Source: an uncultured Gammaproteobacteria bacterium
Lineage (GTDB): Bacteria > Patescibacteriota > Patescibacteriia > SG8-24 > DYFX01
Direction: 5' to 3'
Assembly (NCBI GenBank): GCA_964400625.1
Contig: CAYNUS010000004.1
Location: forward strand, 26,164-90,163
Length of the DNA stretch: 64,000 bases
Shown: positions 30,142 through 52,210 of the stretch, in pieces
How positions within the stretch are numbered: position 1 is the stretch's first letter
Layout: every line of letters starts with the position of its first letter
Program-made: the position numbers and the translations under genes
Notes under the pieces: generated by a model
The model's database searches: none
Told to the model about the DNA's origin: nothing
Seen by the model: only the letters and a program-made list of their open reading frames with translations

Positions 30142-32052
30142 TTATTGGCAGACCGCGCACTCCTCGTTGGCGAAGTCGCGGGCCTGGACCTTCATCTGGG
30201 CGTTATCGATGGCGTCGGCCTCGATCGGCGCGGCCGAGCGGAGGTAGTACAGGCTCTTGGCACCGGCCTTCCAAGCCAGGAAGTGCGCGTCGTGCAGGTA
30301 CTTGCCGCTGATGGGCGTCGGGAAGAAGAGGTTCACCGACTGCGACTGGCAGAGATACGGCTGGCGGTCGGCGGCCTGCTGGACGATCTCGCGCATGTTC
30401 ATCTCGTAGCCGGTGCGGAAGACGGCCTTCTCCTCGTCGGTGAGCTCCTCCATGTGCTGGACCGAGCCCTTGGCGGCGATGACCTTCTTCCAGGTCTCGG
30501 TGGTGTTGATGCCCTTCTTCTCGAAGAGCCTCTCGAGATGGCGGCTCTTCACGAGGAAGCTGCCCGAGAGCGTCTTCTGGAGGTAGGCGTTGCCGGTGAT
30601 GGGCTCGACGCAGGGCGTGGCCTCGCCGCAGATGAAGCTGATGGACGCCGTCGGCGCGATCGAGAGGATGTAGCTGTTGCGCTGGTCGCCGCCGTCGAGC
30701 GGGGCGCCGCGTTCCTCCTTGAGCGCCCGCGACGCGGCCTTCGCGTGCTTGTGGATCAGGCTGAAGATCTTCTTGTTCACGCCGCGCGCCGCCACGCTCT
30801 CGAACGGCAGGTTCTTCGACATCAGGTAGCCGTGGTAGCCCATGACGCCGAGGCCGATGGAGCGCTCGTGCAGGACGGAGTTGATCGACTTCGCGTAGTA
30901 CTTCGGGTCGGCCGCCTCGACGAAGTTGTCGAGGACGTTGTCGAGCGCGCGCACGGCGTCGGCGATGAGCGATTCCGCGTGCGGTTCCCACTCGTCGAAG
31001 CGCTCGAGGTTGAGCGACGAGAGGCAGCAGACGGCGGTGCGGTCATGCGTGGTCGGAAGCGTGATCTCCGAGCAGAGGTTGCTCTGCTGGATGAAGAGCC
31101 CCTTCTCCTTGTGGTGCTCCGGCACGGCGCGGTTCACGGTGTCGATGAAGAGCAGGTACGGCTCGCCCGTCTCGACGCGCGTCTTCAGGATCTTGCGCCA
31201 GACTTCGGTGGCGTCGAGCTCCTTCACCGCGACCTTCCGCTTCGGGTCGATGAGCTGATAGGTACGCTTCTCCTCGACCGCCTTCATGAACTCGTCGGTG
31301 ACGACGAGGCCGTGGTTGGTGTTGAGGCAGCGGCGGTTCATGTCGCCCACCGGCTTGCGGATGTCGATGAACTCCTCGATGTCCGGGTGGTCGACGCGCA
31401 GGTAGGCCGCGCCGGCGCCGCGCCGCACGCCGCCTTGCGAGACCGCGATGATCGACGAGTCCATCACCTTGATGAACGGGATGACGCCGGAGGAGGTGCC
31501 GCCCATCGAGAGCGGGGCGTTCTGCCCGCGGAGTTCCGACCAGTTGGTGCCGATGCCGCCGCCGTTCTTGGAGATGAAGGCGTTCTCGGTGTAGCCCTCG
31601 TAGATGCCCTCGATGCTGTCGGGGACGGTGTTCAGGAAGCACGAGATCGGCAGGCCGCGGTTGGTGTAGGTGTTGGTCAGGACCGGGGTGGCCGGCATGA
31701 ACCAGTTCATCGACATCGCGTCATAGAGCCGCTGGGCGTGCGCCGCCTCGCCGCGCGCCATGCCGCAGGCCACGCGCGAGAAGAACATCTGCGGGTCCTC
31801 GACGATCTGGCCCTTGGCGTCCTTCAGGAAGTAGCGGTCGCGCAGGTTCTCCAGGCCGAAATACGTGAGGAGCGCGTTGCGTTCCGGGCGCGTGACGATC
31901 TTGCGCTGGACGTCGGCGTCGCCCCGGTACTGGGGGGAATCCCAGCTGCCGCGCCCCTGCGTCTTGGCCAGCGTCTCCTCCAAGAGGATGTCGCGGGCGT
32001 CGGCGAGGTCGTTGTTGGACAGGGCGTCGATGACGGAAGCGTGGCGCGGCAT
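30142..32052 (-). CDS. nrdA: class I ribonucleoside-diphosphate reductase alpha subunit
   Basis: 636 aa with an ATP-cone-less N-terminus, catalytic Cys/Asn/Glu region (NLCSEITL), and a C-terminal Cys pair (ECAVCQ). Confidence 0.93.
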   Translation of the reverse strand: MPRHASVIDALSNNDLADARDILLEETLAKTQGRGSWDSPQYRGDADVQRKIVTRPERNALLTYFGLENLRDRYFLKDAKGQIVEDPQMFFSRVACGMARGEAAHAQRLYDAMSMNWFMPATPVLTNTYTNRGLPISCFLNTVPDSIEGIYEGYTENAFISKNGGGIGTNWSELRGQNAPLSMGGTSSGVIPFIKVMDSSIIAVSQGGVRRGAGAAYLRVDHPDIEEFIDIRKPVGDMNRRCLNTNHGLVVTDEFMKAVEEKRTYQLIDPKRKVAVKELDATEVWRKILKTRVETGEPYLLFIDTVNRAVPEHHKEKGLFIQQSNLCSEITLPTTHDRTAVCCLSSLNLERFDEWEPHAESLIADAVRALDNVLDNFVEAADPKYYAKSINSVLHERSIGLGVMGYHGYLMSKNLPFESVAARGVNKKIFSLIHKHAKAASRALKEERGAPLDGGDQRNSYILSIAPTASISFICGEATPCVEPITGNAYLQKTLSGSFLVKSRHLERLFEKKGINTTETWKKVIAAKGSVQHMEELTDEEKAVFRTGYEMNMREIVQQAADRQPYLCQSQSVNLFFPTPISGKYLHDAHFLAWKAGAKSLYYLRSAAPIEADAIDNAQMKVQARDFANEECAVCQ

Positions 32053-32097
32053 AGGCTGACTCGTGACGGATGAGTAAGCGGACGCGACGCGGAAGGC

Positions 32098-33099
32098 TCA
32101 GGCCCAATCCTCGAGGATGGCCCCCTTGCCGTACTCGGTCGCGCGGTTTTCGAAGAAGTTGGTGTGCTCCTTGGCGTTGACCATCGTGTCGAGCCAGAGC
32201 AACGGGTTGGCGGTGCGGTAGCGGGGCTCGAGGCCGATCTCCTGGAGCTTCTTGTCGGCGGTGTAGCGGATGTAGGCCTTCACCTGGTCGGCCGTAAGGC
32301 CCGGCACGGCGCCCATCGAGAAGCAGGTGTCGATGAAGCTGTCTTCCAGGCGCACCATCTCCTCGCAGGCGCCGTAGACGCGTTCCTGGAACGCCGGCGT
32401 CCAGATCTGCTTGTTCTCGGCGATGAGGTCGCGGAAGAGATGGCAGACGCCTTTGCTGTGGAGGCTCTCGTCGCGGATGCTCCAGGTGATGATCTGTCCG
32501 ACGCCCTTCAGCTTCCCCATGCGCGGGAAGTTCATCAGGATGGCGAAGCTCGAGAACAGGCTGACGCCTTCCATGAAGGCTCCGAAGACGGCGAGGTTGA
32601 GCGCGATGTTCTCGACCGAGTCGGTCTTGAAGTCCTGGAGGTACTGGTACTTGTTCCGCATCGCCTCGTATTCGAGGAAGGCGGAATATTCACGCTCCGG
32701 CAGGCCGAGCGAGTCGTTCAGGTAAGAGTAGGCCCAGACGTGGATGCTCTCCATGGCGGCGAAGGCCGAGAGCATCATCTTGATCTCCGGTTTCGGGAAG
32801 GCCGGGATCAGGTTCGTGTTGTAGTTGTTGTTGACCTCGATGTCGCCTTGGGTGAAGAAGCGGAGGATCTGGACGATGAGGTTCTTCTCCTCGGGCGACA
32901 GGCGGAAGCGGTAGTCGGCGATGTCGGCTTCCATCGGGACCTCCGTCGGCATCCAGTGCGCCTGGTTCTGTTTCTGGAAATATTCGAAGTAGTGCTGGTA
33001 CTCGAACGGCCGGTAGAATTTGCGCGGCGTGAGGATCCTCGAGGTGCTCATAGTCTGGTGCGTTTCGTGTCCTTCCGTAAAAAACGGCAGGGACCGCAT
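32098..33099 (-). CDS. nrdB: ribonucleoside-diphosphate reductase beta subunit
   Basis: Ferritin-like di-iron ligands (E...EXXH twice). The true start may be at MSTSRIL (33051). Confidence 0.9.
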   Translation of the reverse strand: MRSLPFFTEGHETHQTMSTSRILTPRKFYRPFEYQHYFEYFQKQNQAHWMPTEVPMEADIADYRFRLSPEEKNLIVQILRFFTQGDIEVNNNYNTNLIPAFPKPEIKMMLSAFAAMESIHVWAYSYLNDSLGLPEREYSAFLEYEAMRNKYQYLQDFKTDSVENIALNLAVFGAFMEGVSLFSSFAILMNFPRMGKLKGVGQIITWSIRDESLHSKGVCHLFRDLIAENKQIWTPAFQERVYGACEEMVRLEDSFIDTCFSMGAVPGLTADQVKAYIRYTADKKLQEIGLEPRYRTANPLLWLDTMVNAKEHTNFFENRATEYGKGAILEDWA

Positions 33100-37197: not shown

Positions 37198-38529
37198 TCA
37201 GAACGGCTTCTTGTCGTCGAACCATCCCCGCTCGAGCGGCCGGAAGGCGTAGAGGGCGCCGTTCACGCTGGCGTAGACGACGGTCGGCGCCGAGGCGAGC
37301 CAGACGTCGGTGCGCGCGTGGTTGGTGAGCGGGCCGTACTCGAGGAACGGGTACCAGGTTTCCCCGTCCGGCGAGACGATGACGCCGAACTTCGGCACGA
37401 CCTCGCCGACCTCGTTGGCTTCGGTGTGGATCGCGGCGTAGTAGATGCCGTTCACGTTCAGCAGGCTGTAGACGTAGCCGGCGTAGCCGTGCGGGATCGG
37501 GTTCCAGACCTCGCGGGTCGCGCCTTCCGCGGCATCGTAGACGGCCAAGCCGTGGCCGTGGAGCTGGTCCGGGCCGAGCAGCCAGCGGAAGCCGCCCGAC
37601 ATCGCGACGGAGGCCGTGAAGCCTTCGTCCCAGACCTGCTTCCAGGTGGCGCCGCCGTCCGGCGACATGAAGGCGAAGCGCGCGACGTCGCCCGTGCCCA
37701 CGACGATCTGTTCCTTGGCCTTGTCGTAGATCACGCCATGGAGGTGGCGCAGCATGTAGCGGTCGTCGCCTTCGCGGTAGGTGCGCGCGTACTGCGGGAA
37801 GAGGGCCTGGAAATCGATCCATGGCTCCCAGTTGAAGCCGTCGTTGGGGCTGCGGTAGAGCACGGCGCGGTTGCGCTCGTGCGTCGTGGCGTAGACGTTC
37901 CCCTTTCCGTCATCCGTCATCGACCAGAACATCGCGACGTCCTCGAGCACGAGGTGCCAGGTGGCGAACCCGTCGTCGGAACGGTACAGCCGCACGGGAC
38001 CGTCGATCTGCAGATAGACGACGCCCTTGGAATCCCCGTGGATGCGGATCTCGCCGCGCTCGGAACTCGCCTTGAAGACGCGTTCGGCGCGGCCGTTCTC
38101 GGGCAGCTTCCAGAGCGAACGCGAACCGTCCGGTTCCGTGACGGCCATGAGCAGCGTGAGCGTCGGCGTGTGGTAGTAGAGCTTGTTGATGTCGCCGATG
38201 GCCTCCGGCAGCGGGACGCGCTGGCGTCCGAGGGCGCTGCCCGTGAGGTTCACGGTCGGCGGCGGAAGGTAGCCGATCGACGGGACGGCGACCTGCTCCT
38301 CCTCGACATCCTCGGCGGCGTCGGTGCCGGTGGCCGTTTCCGTCTGCGCGTCGAGGAGCTCCTCGGCGGTCGGGAGTTCGCCGATGAAGACGGGGCTTTG
38401 GACCAGGGCAGGCGGCTTCGGTGCGGGCTTGGCCTTGATGAGCGCGAAAATCCCGGCGCCGAGAAGCGCCGCGGCCGCGAGCGTCAGGATGATGAAGGAG
38501 AGGCGCCGCATACGCGTCCACTGTAGCAC
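37198..38529 (-). CDS. membrane-anchored beta-propeller protein (sialidase/BNR-like fold), hypothetical
   Basis: 443 aa with an N-terminal TM helix and repeated D-G-x-T/W blades. Confidence 0.5.
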   Translation of the reverse strand: MLQWTRMRRLSFIILTLAAAALLGAGIFALIKAKPAPKPPALVQSPVFIGELPTAEELLDAQTETATGTDAAEDVEEEQVAVPSIGYLPPPTVNLTGSALGRQRVPLPEAIGDINKLYYHTPTLTLLMAVTEPDGSRSLWKLPENGRAERVFKASSERGEIRIHGDSKGVVYLQIDGPVRLYRSDDGFATWHLVLEDVAMFWSMTDDGKGNVYATTHERNRAVLYRSPNDGFNWEPWIDFQALFPQYARTYREGDDRYMLRHLHGVIYDKAKEQIVVGTGDVARFAFMSPDGGATWKQVWDEGFTASVAMSGGFRWLLGPDQLHGHGLAVYDAAEGATREVWNPIPHGYAGYVYSLLNVNGIYYAAIHTEANEVGEVVPKFGVIVSPDGETWYPFLEYGPLTNHARTDVWLASAPTVVYASVNGALYAFRPLERGWFDDKKPF

Positions 38530-38539
38530 GAGGCCGGTC

Positions 38540-39757
38540 TCAGAGCTTGTCCTGCCACCGGCGGACGACCTCGTCGAAGGCGGGCCGATCCGCCTCGTTC
38601 ACGGGATCCGTGCCGGGGAACGTCTCGCGCATGGGGTTGATCTTCACGCCGTTCTTGACCATCTCGTAGTGGAGGTGCGGTCCGGTGGAGAAACCCGTCG
38701 AGCCGACGTAGCCGATGACCTGGCCTTGCGAGACCTTGGCGCCGCGCTTCACCGCGATGCGCGACATGTGCGCGTAGTTCGTGGTGTACGTCCCGTTGTG
38801 GCGCACGCTCACCTTGTTGCCGTACGGGCCGTCCCAGCCCGCGAAGGCGACGACGCCGTCGGCGGTGGAGCGGATGGGCGTGCCGGCCGAGGCGGCGTAA
38901 TCGATGGCGCGGTGGCCGGTCGAGGTGTTGAAGGCGGCGACGTAGCGCATGCCGGTCGTGAAGCCGGAGGTGATGTACTTGAAGGCGAGCGGCGCCTTCA
39001 GGAACATCTTCTTGAGCGAGACGCCCTTCTCGTCGTAGTAGCCTTCCTCGCCGTCGGATTCGACGAAGCGGAATCCGCGGTAGGTCGTCCCGGCGTTCAC
39101 GTACTCCGCCGCGTGCACGGCGCCCGGCATGACGTAGGCGCCGTCGCGCCAGCGCTCCTCGTAGATGAACTTGAAGGTGTCGCCGACGCGGACGTCCTGC
39201 GCGAAGTCGATGGTCCATTCGAAGACGCCGGCCAGCTCGATCACGGCGCGCTCGTCGAGGCCCTGCGCGAGCGCGGCGGCGTACAGCGACGATTCGATCG
39301 TGCCTTCGACGGTCCGCTCGCGGATCTCGTAGGCGATCGTCTCCTTCACGGCGGTCCAGGCGCCTCCTTCCTTGCGGACGTGCAGCTCCTCCTCGTCGTC
39401 GATGGCATAGACGAGCTCGACGTAGGCGCCGCCGGGCGCGTCGCGATAGAGGTCGATCGTCTTCCCCGCGCGGATGCTCGCGAGGTCGTAGACGTCCTTC
39501 GAGGCGGCGTAGATGGCGGTGGCATCGGAGCCGGCGACGCCGGAATCCTCCATGAGGACGCTGAACGTGGCCTGCGGAGGGATCTCGATGCGGTCGACGG
39601 GACGCTCGGGCGCCTTGGGCGCCTCGGGTTCGGCGGCCTCGAACGCGGTTTCCGCCCCTTGCCGGCCTTCGACGGATTTCGAAGACGGCCACAGCACGGC
39701 TAGGCCGGCCGCGAGCGAAATCAAGCCTAATGCCAACGTGAGCGCCCTGGTCTTCAT
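38540..39757 (-). CDS. M23 family metallopeptidase
   Basis: HxxxD ... HLHYE motifs of LytM/M23 at the C-terminus. N-terminal signal/anchor. Confidence 0.8.
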   Translation of the reverse strand: MKTRALTLALGLISLAAGLAVLWPSSKSVEGRQGAETAFEAAEPEAPKAPERPVDRIEIPPQATFSVLMEDSGVAGSDATAIYAASKDVYDLASIRAGKTIDLYRDAPGGAYVELVYAIDDEEELHVRKEGGAWTAVKETIAYEIRERTVEGTIESSLYAAALAQGLDERAVIELAGVFEWTIDFAQDVRVGDTFKFIYEERWRDGAYVMPGAVHAAEYVNAGTTYRGFRFVESDGEEGYYDEKGVSLKKMFLKAPLAFKYITSGFTTGMRYVAAFNTSTGHRAIDYAASAGTPIRSTADGVVAFAGWDGPYGNKVSVRHNGTYTTNYAHMSRIAVKRGAKVSQGQVIGYVGSTGFSTGPHLHYEMVKNGVKINPMRETFPGTDPVNEADRPAFDEVVRRWQDKL

Positions 39758-39803: not shown

Positions 39804-40376
39804 TCACGCCTGCGGCTTGAGCAGGCTGCGGAACGTCTCGCGGAACTTCGCGAGTTTCGGATCGATCACGAGCTGGCAGTAGGGGTTCTCGCCGCGGTTC
39901 TTGGCGTAGTAGTCGCGGTGATAATCCTCGGCGTCCCAGAACTTCTCCAAGGGCTTCAGTTCCGTCACGACCTCGCGTCCGCCGTAGCCGCCCGCGGCTT
40001 TCAGCTCGTCGATGACCGCCTCCGCGTCCGCCTTCTGGCGTTCGTCGGCGTACAGGATGATGGACCGGTACTGCGTGCCGACGTCGTTGCCCTGGCGGTT
40101 GAGCGTGGTCGGGTCGTGCGTGGCGAAGAAGACCTTCAGGAGGTCGGCGTACGACAGCGCGGACGGATCGAACTCGACGCGGATGACTTCGGCGTGGCCG
40201 GTATCGCCGCCGCACACCTGTTCGTACGTCGGGTCCGGCTTCTCGCCGCCGGCGTAGCCCGGCATCACCGAAACGACACCCCTCAATTCCTTGAAGATGG
40301 ACTCCGTGCACCAGAAACAGCCTCCACCGAACACCGCGGATTCAGTATGCATAGTATGTGGTATCATCGGCATCAT
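39804..40376 (-). CDS. msrA: peptide-methionine (S)-S-oxide reductase
   Basis: GCFWC active-site motif. The start could instead be the Met at 40352. Confidence 0.9.
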   Translation of the reverse strand: MMPMIPHTMHTESAVFGGGCFWCTESIFKELRGVVSVMPGYAGGEKPDPTYEQVCGGDTGHAEVIRVEFDPSALSYADLLKVFFATHDPTTLNRQGNDVGTQYRSIILYADERQKADAEAVIDELKAAGGYGGREVVTELKPLEKFWDAEDYHRDYYAKNRGENPYCQLVIDPKLAKFRETFRSLLKPQA

Positions 40377-40382
40377 ACACCT

Positions 40383-40886
40383 ATGCAGGTCCCGAAACGA
40401 AAACCTGGAAAGTACGCGCCTGGCCCCGCCGATTACCACCTCACCCATGAGGCGATCCGGAAGCTCAGGGAGGAGCTCGAGCGCATCGAGACGCACGTGC
40501 GTCCGCGCGCCGTCGAGGAGCTCCGCCGCACCCGCGAGATGGGCGACCTCTCGGAGAACTTCGCGTACACGGCCGCCAAGGGGAAGCTCCTGGGGCTCGA
40601 CACGCGCATCATGGAGATCAAGGACCGCCTGAAGAACGCGGTGCCGATCGCGCACGGCGCCGCCAAGGACGGGAGCGCGCGCATCGGCGCGACCGTCACG
40701 GTCGAGGTGAACGGCAAGCGCCGCGTCTTCGACATCGTCGGCTCGCAGGAAGCGGCGCCCGGCAGCGGCAGCATCTCGTACCTCTCCCCGCTCGGCGCCG
40801 CGCTCATGGGCCGCAAGGCCGGCGAACGCGCGGCGATCGAGGCCAACGGCAAGCGCGTCGAGTATCTCGTCATCGAAGTGAAATGA
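40383..40886 (+). CDS. greA: transcription elongation factor GreA
   Basis: 167 aa with an N-terminal coiled coil, conserved acidic tip (D..E), and a C-terminal FKBP-like domain. Confidence 0.88.
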   Translation: MQVPKRKPGKYAPGPADYHLTHEAIRKLREELERIETHVRPRAVEELRRTREMGDLSENFAYTAAKGKLLGLDTRIMEIKDRLKNAVPIAHGAAKDGSARIGATVTVEVNGKRRVFDIVGSQEAAPGSGSISYLSPLGAALMGRKAGERAAIEANGKRVEYLVIEVK

Positions 40887-41386
40887 GGACCGTCACCGTC
40901 AACGACAAGATGCAGCGCGGCTACCGCTACCGGCTCACGGCCCGACCGGGCCGCGATTTCGATCCGGAGTTCCGGCCGGACCTCTCGCCGAAGGAGATGC
41001 TCGCGCTCGGCGTCTTCGGCGGGAAGTACATGACCGACTGCCGGAAGGAATTCCCCGCCGCCTGGTTCGCCAAGGCGAAGCTCTCGCCGGCGCGGAAGGA
41101 GCCGAAGCTGAACTTCTTCAAGGTCGACGCCAGCCAGCCGCTCAAGGAGTGGGTACGGAAAGGCTGGATCCATCCCGACGACCCGCGCGGCTGGTTCCAG
41201 TGGTATTGCCGCTATTGGATGGGGCGGAGGATGCCGGACGAGGACCGTCGGCAGATCAAGCGCTGGAAGATGATGCTGCGCCACGTCGCGCAGATCAAGA
41301 AAGGCTGCGAGCCCGGCGCGCTCCACTGCCGTCCGAAACAGCGGCAGGCGCTCCTGCACTGGGCGTACGACAGCCGCAAGATCTGA
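40883..41386 (+). CDS. conserved hypothetical protein (GWFQWYCRYW motif)
   Basis: 167 aa. Overlaps greA by 4 nt, which suggests co-transcription. Confidence 0.5.
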   Translation: MRTVTVNDKMQRGYRYRLTARPGRDFDPEFRPDLSPKEMLALGVFGGKYMTDCRKEFPAAWFAKAKLSPARKEPKLNFFKVDASQPLKEWVRKGWIHPDDPRGWFQWYCRYWMGRRMPDEDRRQIKRWKMMLRHVAQIKKGCEPGALHCRPKQRQALLHWAYDSRKI

Positions 41387-41400
41387 AACCGAAACGGCGG

Positions 41401-42414
41401 TCACCCGCCGTTTTTGAGATACCGATCGAAGAATTCGACGGTGCGCCGCATCACGAGCGGCCAGGCCGCGGCGAACTCGTGCGGCTCGCCTTCGTAGGCG
41501 TGGAACGTCAGGTCCTTGCCGGCGTCCTTGAAGGCCGCATCGAGCCGCTCGGCCCAGACGAACGGCGTCGATTCGTCGGCGGTGCCGTGGTGCAGCAGGA
41601 CGGGCGCCCGCACGCGGTCGAGATGCGCGATGGCCGAGACGCCGTCCCAGAACTCCGGCGCGTCGGCAGGTTCGCCGTACGCCTCCACGATACGCTCCGC
41701 CGTCTCGCGCCGGGTGCGCATCCAGCGCTCGAAGTTGTCGCGCGCGTCGCCCGAGACCGGGGCGAAGAGCACGGCGGCGTCGACGAGCTCCGGGACCGCG
41801 ACCAGCGCGTTCAGCGTCACGCCGCCGCCCATCGAATGCCCGAGCATGCCGACCCGCTCGGCATCGACGCGCGGGACCTTCGCCTCGCGCACGGCCAGGA
41901 CGGCGTTCACGGCGTCTTCGACGTAGCCCAGGCGGAGCTTCAGGTCGGCATCGGGATCGGCGTCCGAAGACGCGTGGCCGCGGTAATCGGTGTGCAGGAC
42001 GGCGTATCCTGCGTTCGCCAAGTAATCCTGTTCGCGCCGCAATCCCCTGCCGTTCGTGTAGATGGCGGGGTCGATGTAGCCGTGGTTCAGCACGAGGAGC
42101 GGGAACGGCCCTTCGCCTTTCGGGACGTTCATCACGCCGGAGATCCTGAGCCCGCCGCTCATGTACGAGATCTCGTGGCGGACGTACGCGGCGGTTTCGG
42201 CGAGCGTGCGGACGAAGGCGAGGCCGCGGCCGTCGAAGGCCGTGCGCGAGAGCGCTTCGAGCGAGACGGGGTGCGGCGCGGCGCGGACGATGCCGACGGC
42301 CGCGATGGGCCGGACCTCGCCCTCGCGCGCGGCGCCGCCGATGGCGTAGCCCCAGGTCGCCGTCAGCAGGACGGCCACCACGGCCAGCGTCAGGCGCTGT
42401 CTCCTCGTGGTCAT
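41401..42414 (-). CDS. alpha/beta hydrolase (S9 / dienelactone hydrolase-like), secreted or membrane-anchored
   Basis: GHSMGG nucleophile elbow with downstream Asp and His. N-terminal signal/anchor. Confidence 0.75.
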   Translation of the reverse strand: MTTRRQRLTLAVVAVLLTATWGYAIGGAAREGEVRPIAAVGIVRAAPHPVSLEALSRTAFDGRGLAFVRTLAETAAYVRHEISYMSGGLRISGVMNVPKGEGPFPLLVLNHGYIDPAIYTNGRGLRREQDYLANAGYAVLHTDYRGHASSDADPDADLKLRLGYVEDAVNAVLAVREAKVPRVDAERVGMLGHSMGGGVTLNALVAVPELVDAAVLFAPVSGDARDNFERWMRTRRETAERIVEAYGEPADAPEFWDGVSAIAHLDRVRAPVLLHHGTADESTPFVWAERLDAAFKDAGKDLTFHAYEGEPHEFAAAWPLVMRRTVEFFDRYLKNGG

Positions 42415-44834
42415 GGCAGGAAATCAGGATGCACGCGGATCAGCTTGTCGTCCCCCGCCTTCGGCGCGCCGCGGCCGTCCCGGTTCGAGGTGCTGACGTA
42501 CAGCGCGTCGGGACCGAGCGCCACGCCGCGCAGACGCCCGTAGACGCCCTTGAAATGCTCCGTGAACGCCGCGACGTTCCCGGCAGCATCGAGCTTGGCC
42601 TCGTAGAGCGTCTCGCCCTTGAGGCCGGCGAAGAAGAGGCTCCCGCCGACGTACGCCAGGCCGGACGGCGCCCAGGTGACGTTCGCGCCCGAGTGCCGGA
42701 CGGGCCGCTCCATGCCGGCGACGCTCATGTCGCCTTGGATGACGGGCCAGCCGTAGTTTTTGCCCTTCTCGATCAGGTTGAGCTCGTCGTAACCGGAGAG
42801 CGCGCCGGAGCGTCCATGTTCCGTCTGCCACATGCGGCCTTGGGCGTCCCAGGCGATGCCTTGCGCGTTGCGATGGCCGTAGGACCAGACGTAGGTGCCG
42901 AACGGGTTGTCGGACGGGATGCCGCCTTCCGGCGTGAGCCGGAGCGTCTTGCCCGCGAGCGAGGCGAGGTCCTGCGCGAGGTCCGGAGAATTCGCGTCCC
43001 CGGTCGTGACATAGAGCATGCCGTCGGGTCCGAAGGCGATCTGTCCGCCGTCGTGGTAGAGCGCCGCCGGGATGGCGTCGAGGATCATCTTGTCCTCGAT
43101 GAGCCGCGCGCCTTCGAGCCGGAAGCGCTGGATGCGGTTGCGCTGGCCGTTCTCCGCCGTCGTGAAGTAGAGGTAGACGTAGCCGTTCGCCGCGAACTCG
43201 GGATGCAGCGCCATGCCCATGAGGCCTCCCTCGCCCGTATGCAGGACGTCCGGGATGTCGATCTCCGCCGGCGTCTTGCCGATGCGCCGCAAGGTGCCGG
43301 GGCGCTCCGTGACGAGCAGGTCGCCGTCGGGCAGGAAGACGACGTCCCATGGCACGGCGAGGTCCCGCGCGGCGGTGCCGGTGCCGTACGCCTTGAAGTC
43401 ATGGTCGTTCACGAGGTGCACCGAGGCCATCGGATAGCCCTTCGCGCGCAGCGAATCGTGCGTGCCGAGATGCTCCTTGCGGTTCAAGGAATACGCCTCG
43501 CCGGAGCGGACGATGAGATCGGTCTCCGGATAGCTCGCGAATTCCGTCTCCGTGACTTCGGCCACCGGCGCGTTCGTCCAGCCATAGGAGGCCATGACCG
43601 ACGGGTCGAGCAGCTTGCGCCGCCAGAGCGCGTCGTTCAGCAGGAAGATCTGCGGCGCGCCTTTCATGCGCACGAGCCGCTCGTTCGGGATGGCGTTCAC
43701 GACGCCGCGCGGCAGGACGTACACGTCGCTCCACGAATACCCGTACGACGCGAAGACCGCCTCGTCCTTCAGGTGGCGCTTCTTGCCGCCGTTCACGACA
43801 TAGACCTTCCCGTCGCCTTCGGCCTGCACGAGCATGTGCTCCGGATAGCGGTTGCTCGAGGTCGCGTAGGGCGACATGTCCGCGACGACGCGGAGCGTGC
43901 GCGCGGCGGGATCGAGCTCCACCAGCGTCACGCTCACGTTGTTGTCGCGGCGGCTCTCGGTGAAATGCCGTTCGGGATCGACGTCGAAACTGAGCTTGTA
44001 GATGCCTTTCGGCAGGCCCTGCACGTCGAAATACTGGTCCGGCAGGGTGTACGGATAGACGTCGGCCCAGCCGACCGAGACGCCCTGCTTGCCGCCCTCG
44101 CAGCCGCCGTATTTCCGGGGCTGATCCGGACCTTCGGCCGCCGGCGCCATGGCCGTGTCGTCGCGCATGCAGAAGGTCGTCTTCTGCGTCAGGATCGAAC
44201 CGCCCGCCCCCGTGCCCGACGCGGGACGGACGAGTTCGAGACGGTACTCGCCGAAATCGTCGTAGTGGTAGTGCACGTGGACGTCGTGCCAGAAGAGCAC
44301 GCCGACCGGCACGTCCCGATAGGCGCCGTCCGCGTGGAAGATGCGCTGGGAGGCCGGATGGTCCCCGTCGCCGTCCTGGTCGGATTGCGCGTTCAGCTCG
44401 AAGGCGCCCTTGCCGCGGTTCCAGAAGGTGGCCGTGAACTTGAGCGCCGTGCGTCCGCCGATCGTGGCGTAGCGCAGATCATAGCCGGCCGCCGGCGCGA
44501 GGTCCGGGAGCAGGGCGCGTTCGAGCGGAAGCCCGAGGTTCACCGCCTCGATGATGTCCGCGCCGGCCGGATAGGCCGCGAGCGCGGCGTCGTCGACGGT
44601 CGTGACGTCCGTCCACCGGAAGCCCTGCGCCGCGAAGGCGAGCTCGTTCTCGATCCAGCGGCGCTTGCCGTCCTGGATGTAGTAGACCTTGGTGTCGGAG
44701 ACGCCGCGCAGCAGCATGCCGTCCGGCAGGAGCGGAGCGGCGAAGGCGACCTGTACGGCCATGATCTGCGACAGGAGCGTCGCGGCGGCGGCCATCGCGA
44801 TGACGGAAAGGAGGCGCATGGGGAACGGAAACAT
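42411..44834 (-). CDS. secreted multidomain protein: lysyl-oxidase-like domain fused to PQQ-dependent sugar (glucose/sorbosone) dehydrogenase beta-propeller
   Basis: 807 aa with a signal peptide. FWHDVHVHYHYDDFGEYRLEL matches the LOX copper-site pattern [22 protein letters not shown], and the downstream GIYKLSFDVDP resembles PGNYILKVSVNP. The C-terminal 320 aa carry GSDH motifs (HxG..AF.PDG.LYV..GD). Overlaps the hydrolase by 4 nt. Confidence 0.7.
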   Translation of the reverse strand: MFPFPMRLLSVIAMAAAATLLSQIMAVQVAFAAPLLPDGMLLRGVSDTKVYYIQDGKRRWIENELAFAAQGFRWTDVTTVDDAALAAYPAGADIIEAVNLGLPLERALLPDLAPAAGYDLRYATIGGRTALKFTATFWNRGKGAFELNAQSDQDGDGDHPASQRIFHADGAYRDVPVGVLFWHDVHVHYHYDDFGEYRLELVRPASGTGAGGSILTQKTTFCMRDDTAMAPAAEGPDQPRKYGGCEGGKQGVSVGWADVYPYTLPDQYFDVQGLPKGIYKLSFDVDPERHFTESRRDNNVSVTLVELDPAARTLRVVADMSPYATSSNRYPEHMLVQAEGDGKVYVVNGGKKRHLKDEAVFASYGYSWSDVYVLPRGVVNAIPNERLVRMKGAPQIFLLNDALWRRKLLDPSVMASYGWTNAPVAEVTETEFASYPETDLIVRSGEAYSLNRKEHLGTHDSLRAKGYPMASVHLVNDHDFKAYGTGTAARDLAVPWDVVFLPDGDLLVTERPGTLRRIGKTPAEIDIPDVLHTGEGGLMGMALHPEFAANGYVYLYFTTAENGQRNRIQRFRLEGARLIEDKMILDAIPAALYHDGGQIAFGPDGMLYVTTGDANSPDLAQDLASLAGKTLRLTPEGGIPSDNPFGTYVWSYGHRNAQGIAWDAQGRMWQTEHGRSGALSGYDELNLIEKGKNYGWPVIQGDMSVAGMERPVRHSGANVTWAPSGLAYVGGSLFFAGLKGETLYEAKLDAAGNVAAFTEHFKGVYGRLRGVALGPDALYVSTSNRDGRGAPKAGDDKLIRVHPDFLP

Positions 44835-44897
44835 GATTCTCCCGTGCAGTATAGCACGCCCTCGGACGAAAAAAGCGCCCGGTCAGGCGCTCTCCCG

Positions 44898-46136
44898 TCA
44901 CGCGCCCCGTGCGGCGCTCTCGCCCGCGACGCGCCCGGCGGCCCACGAAGCCTGCAGGTTGAACCCTCCGGTGAAGCCGTCGATGTCGAGGATCTCCCCG
45001 GCGAAGAAGAGTCCGGGGGAAATCTTCGATTCCATCGTCTTCGGATCGACGTCCTTGAGGTCGACGCCGCCGGCCGTGACGAACTCGTCCCCCGCCCCGC
45101 GCCCGATGACGGCGAGCGGGATCCCCTTCAGCCACTCGGAGATCTTGCGGATGTCCTTCTTCGGCACGCCGCCAGCGATCGCCTCCGGATCCAGTCCGAG
45201 GTCGCCGCACAGCGCGAGCGCCAGCGACTTCGACATCGTGAAATCGAGCACGTTGACGAGGCTCTTGCGCGGATGCTCGCGGAGCGCCTGCTCGAGCCCG
45301 CGATAGAGGTCCTCTTCGGCCCGGTCCGGGAACAGGTCGATCTTGAGACGCATCGGCGCGGCGGGTCCGTACGTCTCGAAGGCGACGAGGCTCGAGAGCG
45401 CGAAGACGGCCGGACCGCTCACGCCGCGGTGGGTGAAGAGCATCGGACCGGTGAATTCGTAGGCCTTGGCGAACTTCGTCCGCAGGCGCGCCCTCTCTGA
45501 CGAGAAGCCGGAGACGTCTTTCGGCCACGTCTCCTTCGTGAAGAAGGAGTTGAGGCTCGGCGCCAGCGGCGTGACGCGGTGCCCGAGCGCTTCCGCGAAG
45601 GCGTACCCGTCGCCGGTCGATCCCGTGTGGCGGAAGGCCTGGCCGCCCGTGGTGAGGATGACGCGGTCGGCGCCCAAGGGATCGCCTTCCTTGAAATGGA
45701 TCAGGTAGCCGCCGTCCTTCCGTTCCACGCGGACGACATGGCGCTTCAGCATCACGCGCACGTTCGAGCCCTCGAACAGGCGCTCGAAGGCGCCGACGAC
45801 GTCGTGGCCGTCGTCCGACTGCGGGAACGTCCGCAGGTCCTCCTCGATCTTGAGCGGGACGCCGTGCGCTTCGAACCAGGCGTAGACGGCTTCCGGCGGG
45901 AAGCGCCGCATGGCGGAGTTCAGGAACTTGCCGCCGCGCGGATACTTCGAAAGCACCTCGCGGATGTCGCGCAGGCCCGTCGTGACGTTGCAGCGTCCGC
46001 CGCCGGAGATGATGACCTTCTTGCCGAGCCCGTCGTTGCGCTCGATCAGGAAGACTTCGGTTTCCGGAGACGTCTCATGGATGGCGGCGGCGGCCATGAG
46101 CCCGGCCGCGCCTCCGCCGATGACGGCGATCTTCAT
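44898..46136 (-). CDS. NAD(P)/FAD-dependent oxidoreductase, HI0933/BaiN family
   Basis: 412 aa with GGGAAG dinucleotide fold and C-terminal motifs. Confidence 0.85.
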   Translation of the reverse strand: MKIAVIGGGAAGLMAAAAIHETSPETEVFLIERNDGLGKKVIISGGGRCNVTTGLRDIREVLSKYPRGGKFLNSAMRRFPPEAVYAWFEAHGVPLKIEEDLRTFPQSDDGHDVVGAFERLFEGSNVRVMLKRHVVRVERKDGGYLIHFKEGDPLGADRVILTTGGQAFRHTGSTGDGYAFAEALGHRVTPLAPSLNSFFTKETWPKDVSGFSSERARLRTKFAKAYEFTGPMLFTHRGVSGPAVFALSSLVAFETYGPAAPMRLKIDLFPDRAEEDLYRGLEQALREHPRKSLVNVLDFTMSKSLALALCGDLGLDPEAIAGGVPKKDIRKISEWLKGIPLAVIGRGAGDEFVTAGGVDLKDVDPKTMESKISPGLFFAGEILDIDGFTGGFNLQASWAAGRVAGESAARGA

Positions 46137-49368: not shown

Positions 49369-49974
49369 TCAGCCCTGTTTCGCCTTGATGAAGGCCGGGC
49401 GTTCGGCGCACCGCTTCATCCAGGCCGTGATGGCCGGATAGCCCGAAAGGTCGGTCTCGGCGATCTCCGCGTAGTTGAAGGTCGAGCGCGTCACGATGTC
49501 CGCGACGGTGAAGCCGGAGGGCATGACGTACTCCTTGCCCGTAAGCTGGGCCTCGAAGACGGGCAGGTACCGGTCGAGCGCGTGGCGTGCGGCGGCTTCG
49601 GCCTCTTCGGACGCGGGACGCCCCCACTTCCTCATGCAGAGCGTCACGAAGTTCTTGTCGATGTTGAGCAGCACGAAGAGCTCCCAGCGCAGCTGTTCGG
49701 CATACGCCTCGACGGAATACGGCCCGAAGAGCTTCTGGTCGTATTTCATGCCGAGGTAGTGCACCATCGCCGCAGATTCGGTGAGCACGAAACCGTCGTG
49801 GACCAGGGTCGGGATCTGGCCGGTCGGGTTCAGGGCGAGGTACTCCGGCGAACGGGTCTCTCCGGCGGCGATGTCGAGCTTCTTGGTCTCGTAGGCGAGC
49901 CCGAGTTCGGCGAGCGCCCAATGCGGGCGGAACGACGATCCGGCGGGGCCGCCGTAGACGATGATGGTGGGCAT
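49369..49974 (-). CDS. glutathione S-transferase
   Basis: Thioredoxin-like N-domain (start MPTIIVYGG) and a helical C-domain. Confidence 0.75.
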   Translation of the reverse strand: MPTIIVYGGPAGSSFRPHWALAELGLAYETKKLDIAAGETRSPEYLALNPTGQIPTLVHDGFVLTESAAMVHYLGMKYDQKLFGPYSVEAYAEQLRWELFVLLNIDKNFVTLCMRKWGRPASEEAEAAARHALDRYLPVFEAQLTGKEYVMPSGFTVADIVTRSTFNYAEIAETDLSGYPAITAWMKRCAERPAFIKAKQG

Positions 49975-50044
49975 GACGGTGCGGTAAGGAGTGATACGGA
50001 CCCGCCCATGGTACGCGCGTCGCGTCCGGACGTCCATCCTCGCC

Positions 50045-51526: not shown

Positions 51527-52210
51527 TTACTGCTTTTTCTTGGCGACGGCCTTCTTCTTGGCCGGAGCCTTGGAGGTCTTGGCGGCCTTCTCGACGACCA
51601 CGGCCTTTTCGGCCTTCGGAGCGGCGGCCGTTTCGGCCTTCTTCGCTTCCGGAGCGGCGGAGAGCTTCGCCGGAGCGGCGAGGTTCAGCGCCTTGATGAT
51701 CATGTCGAGCTTCGCGTTGATGGCGGCGAACTGCTCCTTCGAGCGGTCCTCGGCCGGAGCCGACGCCTTGAACGACTTGTAGTCGGTGGCGTTCGACTTC
51801 TCGTTCCCGAAGCAGGCGCGGCAGTACACCGGCTTGCTGCCGTTCGGCTTGAACGGCACTTCGCAGCCGTTCCCGCACGAGGCGCAGGTGGCCTTGAAAA
51901 GCTGCTTCTCCTCGCGGTCGAATCCGCGGTCATCGCGGCGCGGAGCGGAATCGCGGTCGAAACGCATCGGGGCGCTTCCCGTGTCGCCGTCCTTCTTGAA
52001 GCACTCGCGGCAGTAGATCGGACGCGAGCCGTTCGGCTTGAACGGCACTTCGCAGCCGTTGCCGCACGAGGCGCAGGTGGCCTGGTGCATCTGCGGGCGG
52101 TCGAACCCGCGGTCATCGCGGCGGTTGAAGCTTCCGCCTCCGCCGAACTTGCGGTCATTGCCGCCCTTCCAACCGCCCCCCTGGGGCCGGTTTCCATGAG
52201 ACTTGAACAT
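51527..52210 (-). CDS. protein with two tandem CxxC...CxxC zinc-ribbon modules and a Lys/Ala-rich histone H1-like C-terminal tail
   Basis: ATCASCGNGCEVPFKPNGS.P.YCR.CF occurs twice. A 54-bp DNA repeat (51841-51894 and 52029-52082, 1 mismatch) underlies it. The tail is AAPKAEKAVVVEKAAKTSKAPAKKKAVAKKKQ. Confidence 0.6.
   Translation of the reverse strand: MFKSHGNRPQGGGWKGGNDRKFGGGGSFNRRDDRGFDRPQMHQATCASCGNGCEVPFKPNGSRPIYCRECFKKDGDTGSAPMRFDRDSAPRRDDRGFDREEKQLFKATCASCGNGCEVPFKPNGSKPVYCRACFGNEKSNATDYKSFKASAPAEDRSKEQFAAINAKLDMIIKALNLAAPAKLSAAPEAKKAETAAAPKAEKAVVVEKAAKTSKAPAKKKAVAKKKQ

Follow-up and report, generated by a model that had tools for sequence, protein, structure and literature searches.

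A 64-kb stretch of contig CAYNUS010000004.1 (assembly GCA_964400625.1), hereafter the window, carries a gene in which a lysyl oxidase (LOX) domain is joined to a propeller of the glucose/sorbosone dehydrogenase (GSDH) type, dependent on pyrroloquinoline quinone (PQQ). Features of the locus are reported in Table 1. The first-pass annotation had proposed a secreted LOX-GSDH fusion, and this is genuine, as the signal and both Pfam domains lie in a single open reading frame (ORF) of 807 aa. The N-terminus (MRLLSVIAMAAAATLL...AFA/AP) contains a hydrophobic 15-mer with a Kyte-Doolittle (KD) value of 2.17, and an N-terminal signal was found in 37 of 40 full-length homologues of the fusion. The sole cysteines of the protein, C222 and C245, both match a disulfide of the animal enzyme LOXL2 (C657-C673). 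From the signal and this cysteine match, we infer that the protein is exported.

Table 1. Features of the LOX-GSDH locus (positions in the window; aa, residues of the fusion protein unless stated otherwise).
Feature	Position	Strand	Basis or remark
LOX-GSDH fusion gene	42411..44834	(-)	single 807-aa ORF: signal, repeat, LOX, 3 repeats, GSDH
Predicted Sec-type signal peptide, aa 1-32	44739..44834	(-)	R7, hydrophobic core, AFA/AP; by inspection, cleavage site inferred
Repeat copy A, aa 43-94, probably EccB-repeat/PlyCB-like	44553..44708	(-)	module HMM E=1e-20; pairwise score 90 vs copy B
LOX catalytic domain, aa 96-330	43845..44549	(-)	PF01186; phmmer to 5ZE3 E 1.4e-7; AF2 + Foldseek
Copper motif W182-H183-D-V-H186-V-H188-Y-H190 (WHDVHVHYH, aa 182-190)	44265..44291	(-)	phmmer alignment to LOXL2
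Lys218, LTQ precursor lysine	44181..44183	(-)	TQK(218)TTFC(222) aligned to LOXL2 GHK(653)ASFC(657)
Tyr260, LTQ precursor tyrosine and fourth metal ligand	44055..44057	(-)	WADVY(260) aligned to LOXL2 WDMY(689)
Repeats B, C, D, aa 337-486	43377..43826	(-)	each 4 strands + 2 helices
Six-bladed PQQ/Ca glucose/sorbosone (aldose sugar) dehydrogenase propeller, aa 487-807	42414..43376	(-)	Pfam GSDH; catalytic His594
TATACT and GGGAGA	44848-44853 and 44838-44843	(-)	ahead of fusion ATG; sequence reading
Hairpin + U-run, probable terminator	44863..44902	(-)	between HI0933-like flavoprotein gene, which it follows, and fusion gene
Alpha/beta (S9/DLH-type) serine hydrolase, 337 aa	41401..42414	(-)	Pfam Peptidase_S9 77.7 bits; GHSMG at aa 192 of the hydrolase; N-terminal anchor (RRQRL)
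Csd3-type Peptidase_M23 gene	38540..39757	(-)	2.6 kb downstream of fusion; Pfam M23 120 bits + Csd3_N2

Independent assemblies have yielded about 43 full-length homologues in which both Pfam domains are present. One protein (P0001) is identical, and the named homologues are 56-59% identical. In 11 other loci, one unbroken stop-to-stop frame spans both domains. The domain boundary is therefore not a frameshift between two separate genes, since the same single ORF is kept in all of these. GC content at third codon positions (GC3) is 0.91 for the fusion gene and for the hydrolase gene alike, a value typical of the ~64 genes called in the window (67% GC). In the databases, the fusion homologues are named 'PQQ-dependent sugar dehydrogenase' only. 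A partial homologue, P0032, carries the label Baltobacteraceae, which we take, without proof, as a probable mis-binning.

Searched against the Lysyl_oxidase profile (PF01186, cutoff 20.4), the whole protein scored a significant 48.2 bits in a match that joins aa 182-306 to positions 79-194 of the 204 in the profile, and the isolated segment aa 97-333 scored 53.3 bits, so that the profile comparison bears out the assignment to this family. In LOXL2, the metal ligands are H626, H628, H630 and Y689, the lysine-tyrosylquinone (LTQ) cofactor is made from K653 and Y689, and C657 and C673 form a disulfide (PMC5899467). By phmmer alignment to the LOXL2 structure 5ZE3, H186, H188 and H190 correspond to the three histidine ligands, and C222/C245 to the disulfide pair. 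The LOX-type motif WxWHxCHxHYH, which reads WHDCHRHYH in LOXL2, has its Cys replaced by Val in the window protein. Conservation of these positions is nearly complete: all four His of WHDVHVHYH are invariant in 47/47 aligned homologues, K218 in 47/47 and Y260 in 48/48, and the copper His, the LTQ pair and the Cys pair taken together are invariant in 47-48 of 48 members. Adding more distant relatives that have LOX only leaves the key residues invariant, and the LOXL2 register is also borne out by counting along the chain. As far as its sequence tells, the domain has every residue required for a copper/LTQ amine oxidase. The segment GIYKLSFDVDP, put forward earlier as the LTQ region, aligns instead to a later LOXL2 strand ('PGDYLFQVVINP'), and the LTQ residues are K218 and Y260.

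An AlphaFold2 (AF2) model of aa 96-335 had a pLDDT of 79 and a pTM of 0.77. When this model was compared to the PDB with Foldseek, LOXL2 (5ZE3) was recovered as the sole significant fold match, with an E-value of 1.9e-7, a probability of 1.00, a TMq of 0.54 and ~245 aligned columns. As modelled, the full LOX catalytic fold is present, beyond the C-terminal part aligned by Pfam.

For the C-terminal half, the claim of a complete GSDH-type propeller also held: the match to PF07995 (268.8 bits, aa 493-788) covers profile positions 2-329 of 332, nearly the entire profile. The propeller aligns with the aldose sugar dehydrogenase (Asd) of Pyrobaculum aerophilum (3A9G) with an E-value of 2e-81 over aa 486-801, with the Thermus 2ISM and Streptomyces 3DAS proteins, and more distantly with the soluble glucose dehydrogenase (sGDH) of A. 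calcoaceticus, its PDB relatives spanning E-values from 2e-81 to 3e-25. Residues H144, R228, N229, Q231, W346, K377, R406 and R408 of sGDH map onto H594, R655, N656, Q658, W721, K739, R767 and R769. The mature sGDH sequence used for this mapping was checked by its length (454) and 14 published residue numbers. The mapped PQQ ligands and the catalytic His594 are invariant across the family alignment, except for K739, which is K or R, and W721 is conserved as well; the roles of the sGDH residues (H144 as catalytic base; R228, N229, Q231, K377, R406 and R408 as PQQ ligands) were taken from PMC6881789. At the calcium site, Q246-G247-P248 of sGDH correspond to H673-G674-R675, the Ca2+ ligands of sGDH being backbone carbonyls that follow a conserved Gln/Glu. 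The narrower NCBIfam model TIGR03606 (non_repeat_PQQ) was not reached (131 bits for a cutoff of 434.6). Judging from these alignments, the propeller is complete, its catalytic His and PQQ-binding residues being those of the sGDH/Asd type, and it is a Pfam GSDH member closer to the Asd type than to the narrower sGDH subfamily.

The two enzyme domains are accompanied by a repeated module, which the first-pass annotation had described as two unclassified copies of ~60 aa. The module does exist, but a hidden Markov model (HMM) finds four copies of ~52 aa (aa 43-94, 337-388, 390-441 and 444-486), each matched by one and the same HMM with E-values from 1e-13 to 1e-22. An AF2 model of aa 326-492 (pLDDT 88, pTM 0.78) shows a strand-strand-strand-helix-strand-helix unit three times over. 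The repeats of EccB1, with boundaries from PMC4769845, consist of a four-stranded sheet and two helices. Compared with the Pfam family T7SS_ESX1_EccB, a single module gave a sub-threshold match that falls exactly at the profile positions of the EccB1 repeat R2, and proteins with many copies exceed the threshold (P0072, for example, with 61 bits). What appears to be the same four-strand, two-helix tandem module is found in lysins of the PlyCB-like/EccB-repeat kind (PlyC, 4F87; LysIME-EF1, 6IST; Lys170, 7D55) and in EccB1 (3X3M). In ten sampled multi-module proteins of metagenomic origin, the cargo was Amidase_2 (two proteins), CHAP, Peptidase_M23, CAP or cohesin. Lysins and autolysins classically combine a catalytic domain with binding repeats in tandem, and because of this likeness we read the repeat as a probable EccB-repeat/PlyCB-like module of putative cell-wall-binding type. 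The cargo differs, being a hydrolase in the lysins and hydrolases of this kind and two oxidoreductases in the window protein. Five to 16 copies of the ~52-aa module also occur in giant proteins (P0056, 1423 aa; P0070, 1817 aa; P0080, 3254 aa; and others), some of which add CarboxypepD_reg, BACON, cohesin or CAP domains; these are probably large surface proteins.

We then asked how constant the association of LOX with GSDH is, counting the 20 loci whose LOX protein bears the repeats. The two domains are fused in 12 of them, and in the other 8 the GSDH gene lies directly upstream or downstream of the LOX gene; not one locus lacks GSDH. Gene order differs among loci, and two GSDH subfamilies are employed. 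In the split form of Doudnabacteria, a repeat-LOX-repeat protein of 638 aa comes first, and after it a GSDH of 399 aa that has its own signal and is 61% identical to the window propeller. In L100 and its relatives, the partner is upstream and belongs to the other subfamily (27-28% identity; Pfam GSDH, DUF7133, TrAA12-like), and it bears repeat copies of its own. In L105 (390-8252), a divergent GSDH of this DUF7133/TrAA12-like kind is itself fused to LOX. Upstream of the L105 fusion are a divergent M23 gene and genes for a Na/H exchanger, for a glycoside-hydrolase-like protein containing module-like sequence, and for a homologue of the window hydrolase; a sortase gene is found just downstream, and another one near the system in L087.

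The linkage extends to LOX genes without the module. These were scored when at least 2.5 kb of flank was available on both sides (n=21), and a GSDH gene was nearby in 15, with 14 forming a tight same-strand LOX→GSDH pair whose GSDH is 51-59% identical to the window domain. As a control, no LOX neighbour was found within ~6 kb among the 80 most similar ordinary GSDH loci of named genomes, a set drawn from a contig scan with the full-length alignment, in which the patterns fell in the GSDH half and stand-alone GSDH genes only were returned. In a neighbour-joining tree (distance-based, midpoint-rooted, without bootstrap), all 38 LOX-linked GSDHs fall in one clade that excludes the 80 ordinary ones. 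LOX and a dedicated GSDH clade are thus fused or adjacent throughout a Patescibacteria lineage, whose named members are assigned to the Patescibacteria group, Parcubacteria, Paceibacterota, Colwellbacteria and Doudnabacteria. Among loci with the system, GC content ranges from 0.39 to 0.67; the window (67%) is at the upper extreme, and L086 (Patescibacteria group, GCA_004297205.1) reaches 0.65. A search with the N-terminal half of the protein returned 2,398 representative proteins at E<=1e-10, repeat-only matches included, and ~110 of the best 150 match LOX. The view that bacterial LOX homologues are rare is not supported by these numbers, nor by the five bacterial phyla already listed in 2015 (PMC4448552).

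Two kinds of genes point to a link of the LOX proteins with peptidoglycan. Seventeen of the repeat-bearing loci have an M23 peptidase gene no more than ~2.5 kb away, which is either divergent or placed just upstream on the same strand; most loci other than the window have a short M23 gene directly adjoining the LOX/GSDH genes. In addition, a search with the repeat-less LOX protein P0067 gave ~40 proteins of ~460 aa from Parcubacteria/Pacebacteria that combine a YceG/MltG region (PF02618) with LOX. These proteins (P0067, P0318-P0353) carry no annotation other than 'endolytic transglycosylase MltG' or 'YceG', and no publication on them was found. In L109 (4263-6844), the YceG match spans positions 2-139 of a 275-position profile, hence its N-terminal half, and a GSDH gene comes directly after. 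The YceG/MltG(N-terminal)-LOX proteins of Parcubacteria, such as P0320 ('endolytic transglycosylase MltG [Candidatus Parcubacteria bacterium]'), belong to the same LOX and GSDH clades as the window protein and, as with its repeats, join a peptidoglycan-related region to LOX. They differ from it in that GSDH is a separate polypeptide of the same operon, not fused, and in that they have neither EccB-like repeats nor an M23 neighbour.

The reading that we consider the most probable, on balance, is that of a wall-directed amine oxidase and sugar dehydrogenase working with scavenged PQQ. The repeats would dock the exported protein on peptidoglycan or on a wall glycopolymer, either of its own cell or of a host. 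With O2 as oxidant, the LOX domain would then deaminate primary amines exposed on the wall, yielding a peptidyl aldehyde, NH3 and H2O2; the best candidate substrate would be an epsilon-amine, belonging to Lys or to some other diamino acid, left free in stem peptides by M23 cleavage. The GSDH domain, loaded with scavenged PQQ, would oxidise a hemiacetal on the same polymer, either a sugar at a reducing end or the hydrate/hemiacetal formed by the new aldehyde. The suggestion made at the outset of an amine- or sugar-bearing polymer as target fits with repeats of cell-wall-binding type. Substrates of the archaeal enzyme HTU-LOX include Lys polymers, many small amines, aminoglycosides (amino-sugar antibiotics) and polymyxin (PMC6452851). 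CPR genomes (candidate phyla radiation) contain six-bladed PQQ enzymes, and PQQ biosynthesis genes were recorded in none of them (bioRxiv 10.64898/2026.07.10.737718), which means that the cofactor must be acquired.

Several points weigh against this reading. The substrates named for both domains are candidates. Both O2 and copper are required by LOX, and the window showed no gene for copper handling. We know of no precedent for a GSDH role beside an amine oxidase. Neither the L086 locus nor the module-less LOX→GSDH operons have an M23 gene nearby, so that this gene is not obligatory; its proximity, like that of GreA, could in part be inherited synteny. Finally, the YceG part of the LOX fusions, with its match to half of the profile, may serve for anchoring or binding and not for catalysis.

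Other explanations were weighed against the same data. PQQ dehydrogenases require an electron acceptor, and one possibility is that the propeller oxidises a sugar and that the reduced PQQ then passes its electrons to the Cu/quinone centre of LOX, where O2 is reduced. LOX would take the part that the cytochrome has in the fungal PQQ pyranose dehydrogenase or in cellobiose dehydrogenase, and organisms that lack a respiratory chain would thereby possess a sugar oxidase complete in itself. A cytochrome usually accompanies six-bladed PQQ enzymes, either fused to them or encoded beside them, CcPDH with its AA8 cytochrome, AA12 and CBM1 being an example; no cytochrome was seen in the window, and the constant partner here is LOX. 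However, K218 and Y260 are invariant, which electron transfer alone would not require, ~150 residues making three folded repeats stand between the two domains, the proteins of the split form each have their own export signal and sometimes their own repeats, and to our knowledge no such electron transfer is described for LOX. We judge this relay to be rather improbable. It is also unlikely, in our opinion, that the two domains act independently on soluble compounds, converting amines, polyamines and amino sugars to NH3 and aldoses to aldonolactones, with repeats that only retain the enzyme on its own wall. Asd/sGDH enzymes have a broad aldose specificity, and wall-binding repeats are a common retention device, found in many monoderm surface enzymes; relaxed specificity towards many small primary amines is also on record for HTU-LOX (PMC6452851). 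Yet such scavenging leaves unexplained why these two activities are paired in 20/20 loci, with a dedicated GSDH clade, and why links to M23 and to the N-terminal region of MltG recur; moreover, it is not obvious how organisms of minimal metabolism would assimilate aldehyde, H2O2 and lactone produced outside the cell. As for an artefact or a decayed gene, i.e. a misassembly, a frameshifted gene pair or an inactive LOX-like relic, its chances are close to nil: the single ORF has a normal codon signature, P0001 and the full-length homologues come from independent assemblies, catalytic residues are invariant in both domains, and the frames are unbroken, so that all three variants were ruled out.

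The last alternative was the model of the first-pass annotation, a three-activity extracellular operon in which the fusion protein and the overlapping hydrolase modify one polymer. The 4-nt overlap is real (ATGA: CTG CCA TGA closes the fusion gene and ATG ACC ACG opens the hydrolase gene) and is taken to mean translational coupling in this genome, the hydrolase has an N-terminal anchor, and the pair is bounded by the hairpin upstream of the fusion gene and by a terminator-like site after the hydrolase gene. This hairpin folds at -23 kcal/mol (z -2.7); a consensus terminator scan did not report it, and its role as terminator is deduced from the folding. Given the hairpin and U-run after the HI0933-like gene, and the TATACT and GGGAGA elements before the ATG, the two genes are probably co-transcribed as a bicistronic unit in this genome. 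A shared function does not follow, for the hydrolase gene adjoins the system in 1 of the 20 loci only. It is absent from 18, and in the remaining one, L105, a homologue with 53% identity lies 3.7 kb away on the opposite strand. The position is occupied by unrelated genes in other loci; in L003, the 341-aa gene that comes downstream of the fusion was examined as an equivalent and rejected as unrelated. In the closest relatives, L085, L089 and L090 (82-86% identical, with the same synteny), the LOX half is 68-84% and the GSDH half 72-87% identical (86% overall for the L085 protein P0002). Their gene order is RecQ, HI0933-like, fusion, small ORF, GreA, MsrA and Csd3-type M23, with no gene between the fusion and the small ORF, where the hydrolase would be. 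The hydrolase family, with more than 2,800 members across Patescibacteria, is also far larger than that of the fusion. One homologue, P0293 (519 aa), is fused to a Peptidase_M23 domain, which suggests that this widespread family may act on the cell envelope too, and to this extent agrees with a wall-related operon. As a general rule, the three-enzyme operon is already largely refuted, and we consider it very unlikely even as a local arrangement of common purpose. The hydrolase is probably a common Patescibacteria envelope hydrolase, inserted beside the fusion in this lineage only, and the conserved partners of LOX are GSDH, the wall-binding-type repeats and the M23 peptidase, without the hydrolase. 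Convergent with the hydrolase gene is a 167-aa ORF (40883-41386, (+)) without Pfam match, whose position between the fusion and GreA is kept in L085 (158 aa) and L003 (171 aa).

How the fusion protein compares with known enzymes was also considered. With the animal enzymes LOX and LOXL1-4 (PF01186; 5ZE3), the window protein shares the catalytic fold, the HxHxH copper motif and the LTQ Lys and Tyr, and both are secreted and combined with substrate-targeting domains, putative ones in the window protein. Identity is ~20%. One of the five disulfides of LOXL2 (C657-C673) and part of the Ca site (E293, N298, N299) are kept, while the other four disulfides, the propeptide and the SRCR domains are missing. 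Targeting in the window protein would fall to EccB/PlyCB-like repeats, where animal LOX has SRCR domains; a PQQ dehydrogenase is fused on, and the protein comes from bacteria devoid of collagen and elastin. The 2015 survey of Grau-Bove et al. (PMC4448552) reported prokaryotic LOX in five other bacterial phyla, almost all single-domain, whereas the LOX described here is multi-domain and from Patescibacteria. That survey makes no mention of GSDH, sorbosone or dehydrogenase, and neither wall-binding repeats nor links to M23 or MltG are among its architectures. The HTU-LOX of Haloterrigena turkmenica is an amine oxidase sensitive to beta-aminopropionitrile (BAPN), and prokaryotic LOX carry a signal or anchor, as does the window protein (PMC6452851). 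The native function of prokaryotic LOX is called unknown or cryptic in both papers (PMC4448552, PMC6452851).

The propeller has the same six blades, catalytic His, GHRN motif and Arg/Lys PQQ ligands as the Asd/sGDH enzymes (3A9G/3A9H, 2ISM, 3DAS, E. coli YliI 2G8S, A. calcoaceticus 1C9U), and YliI also resides in a host without PQQ synthesis. These enzymes are stand-alone, periplasmic or soluble, in contrast to the window propeller, which is C-terminal behind repeats and belongs to a separate clade, always found together with LOX. CcPDH (AA8 cytochrome b, AA12, CBM1; PMC4332668, PMC6881789) is likewise extracellular and likewise combines a PQQ propeller with a second redox domain and a polymer-binding module; there, however, a haem electron carrier, not an amine oxidase, forms the second redox domain, the binding module is for cellulose, and the propeller is of another subfamily than that of the window. 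The divergent GSDH partners of L100 and L105 are those that match the TrAA12-like/DUF7133 profiles, akin to the AA12 type of CcPDH. A 2026 preprint on six-bladed PQQ enzymes (bioRxiv 10.64898/2026.07.10.737718) records CPR occurrences and does not mention LOX. In open-access papers and bioRxiv, we found nothing relevant on LOX linked to GSDH (PQQ/sorbosone dehydrogenase), to Patescibacteria or to peptidoglycan. The LOX-GSDH fusion is thus an undescribed architecture and gene association of known families, and not a new fold or chemistry. The natural pairing in one polypeptide of two quinone cofactors, the protein-derived LTQ and PQQ, appears to be undescribed so far.

The linkage with GSDH offers a first testable clue to the function of bacterial LOX, in which context is built in (wall-binding-type repeats or the MltG N-terminal region, the M23 neighbour, a PQQ partner of a dedicated clade), and it points to assays on peptidoglycan-derived substrates. 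For Patescibacteria, usually portrayed as minimal fermenters, the system implies a surface chemistry dependent on O2 and copper and an outside source of PQQ; it is also a possible tool in the interaction with a host wall. A bolder and doubtful proposal is that of an oxidative wall chemistry resembling that of the extracellular matrix. LOX would turn free Lys or diamino-acid amines, in peptidoglycan or in proteins anchored to the wall, into aldehydes, which would either give Schiff-base or aldol cross-links, an epibiont being welded to the wall of its host for example, or block re-crosslinking. The PQQ dehydrogenase would tune the outcome by oxidising the aldehyde/hemiacetal or glycan ends with a host-derived cofactor. 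Were this true, the ancestral role of LOX would be in the cell wall, and the reaction would form a new class of peptidoglycan modification.

The window is assigned to Patescibacteria by way of the named homologues (56-59% identity), of synteny and of the GC-rich relative L086, and the assignment is therefore a putative one. No match was obtained in Rfam and tRNA scans of the 64 kb, nor was any rRNA found. Large and small subunits of a class I ribonucleotide reductase are encoded at 30142-33099 (-), MsrA lies within 39804-40655, and a glutathione S-transferase (GST) gene is at 49369-50037. The small subunit of class I ribonucleotide reductases requires O2, and the three together suggest an oxygen-exposed lifestyle, in keeping with a LOX that uses O2. 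Directly after the Csd3-type M23 gene, a 443-aa exported protein is encoded (37198-38529, (-)), with a weak Sortilin-Vps10/BNR-like match only. In L085, a gene of similar size (437 aa) also comes after M23; a 437-aa gene of L105 was considered as a relative of the 443-aa gene and rejected as unrelated. Small treble-clef zinc-finger proteins (PF23477, zf_Tbcl_2) recur near LOX-GSDH, in L001 (4699-5109), L003 (4038-4442) and L087 (8480-8842), and the window has one at 51527-52210 (-), ~7 kb from the LOX-GSDH locus.

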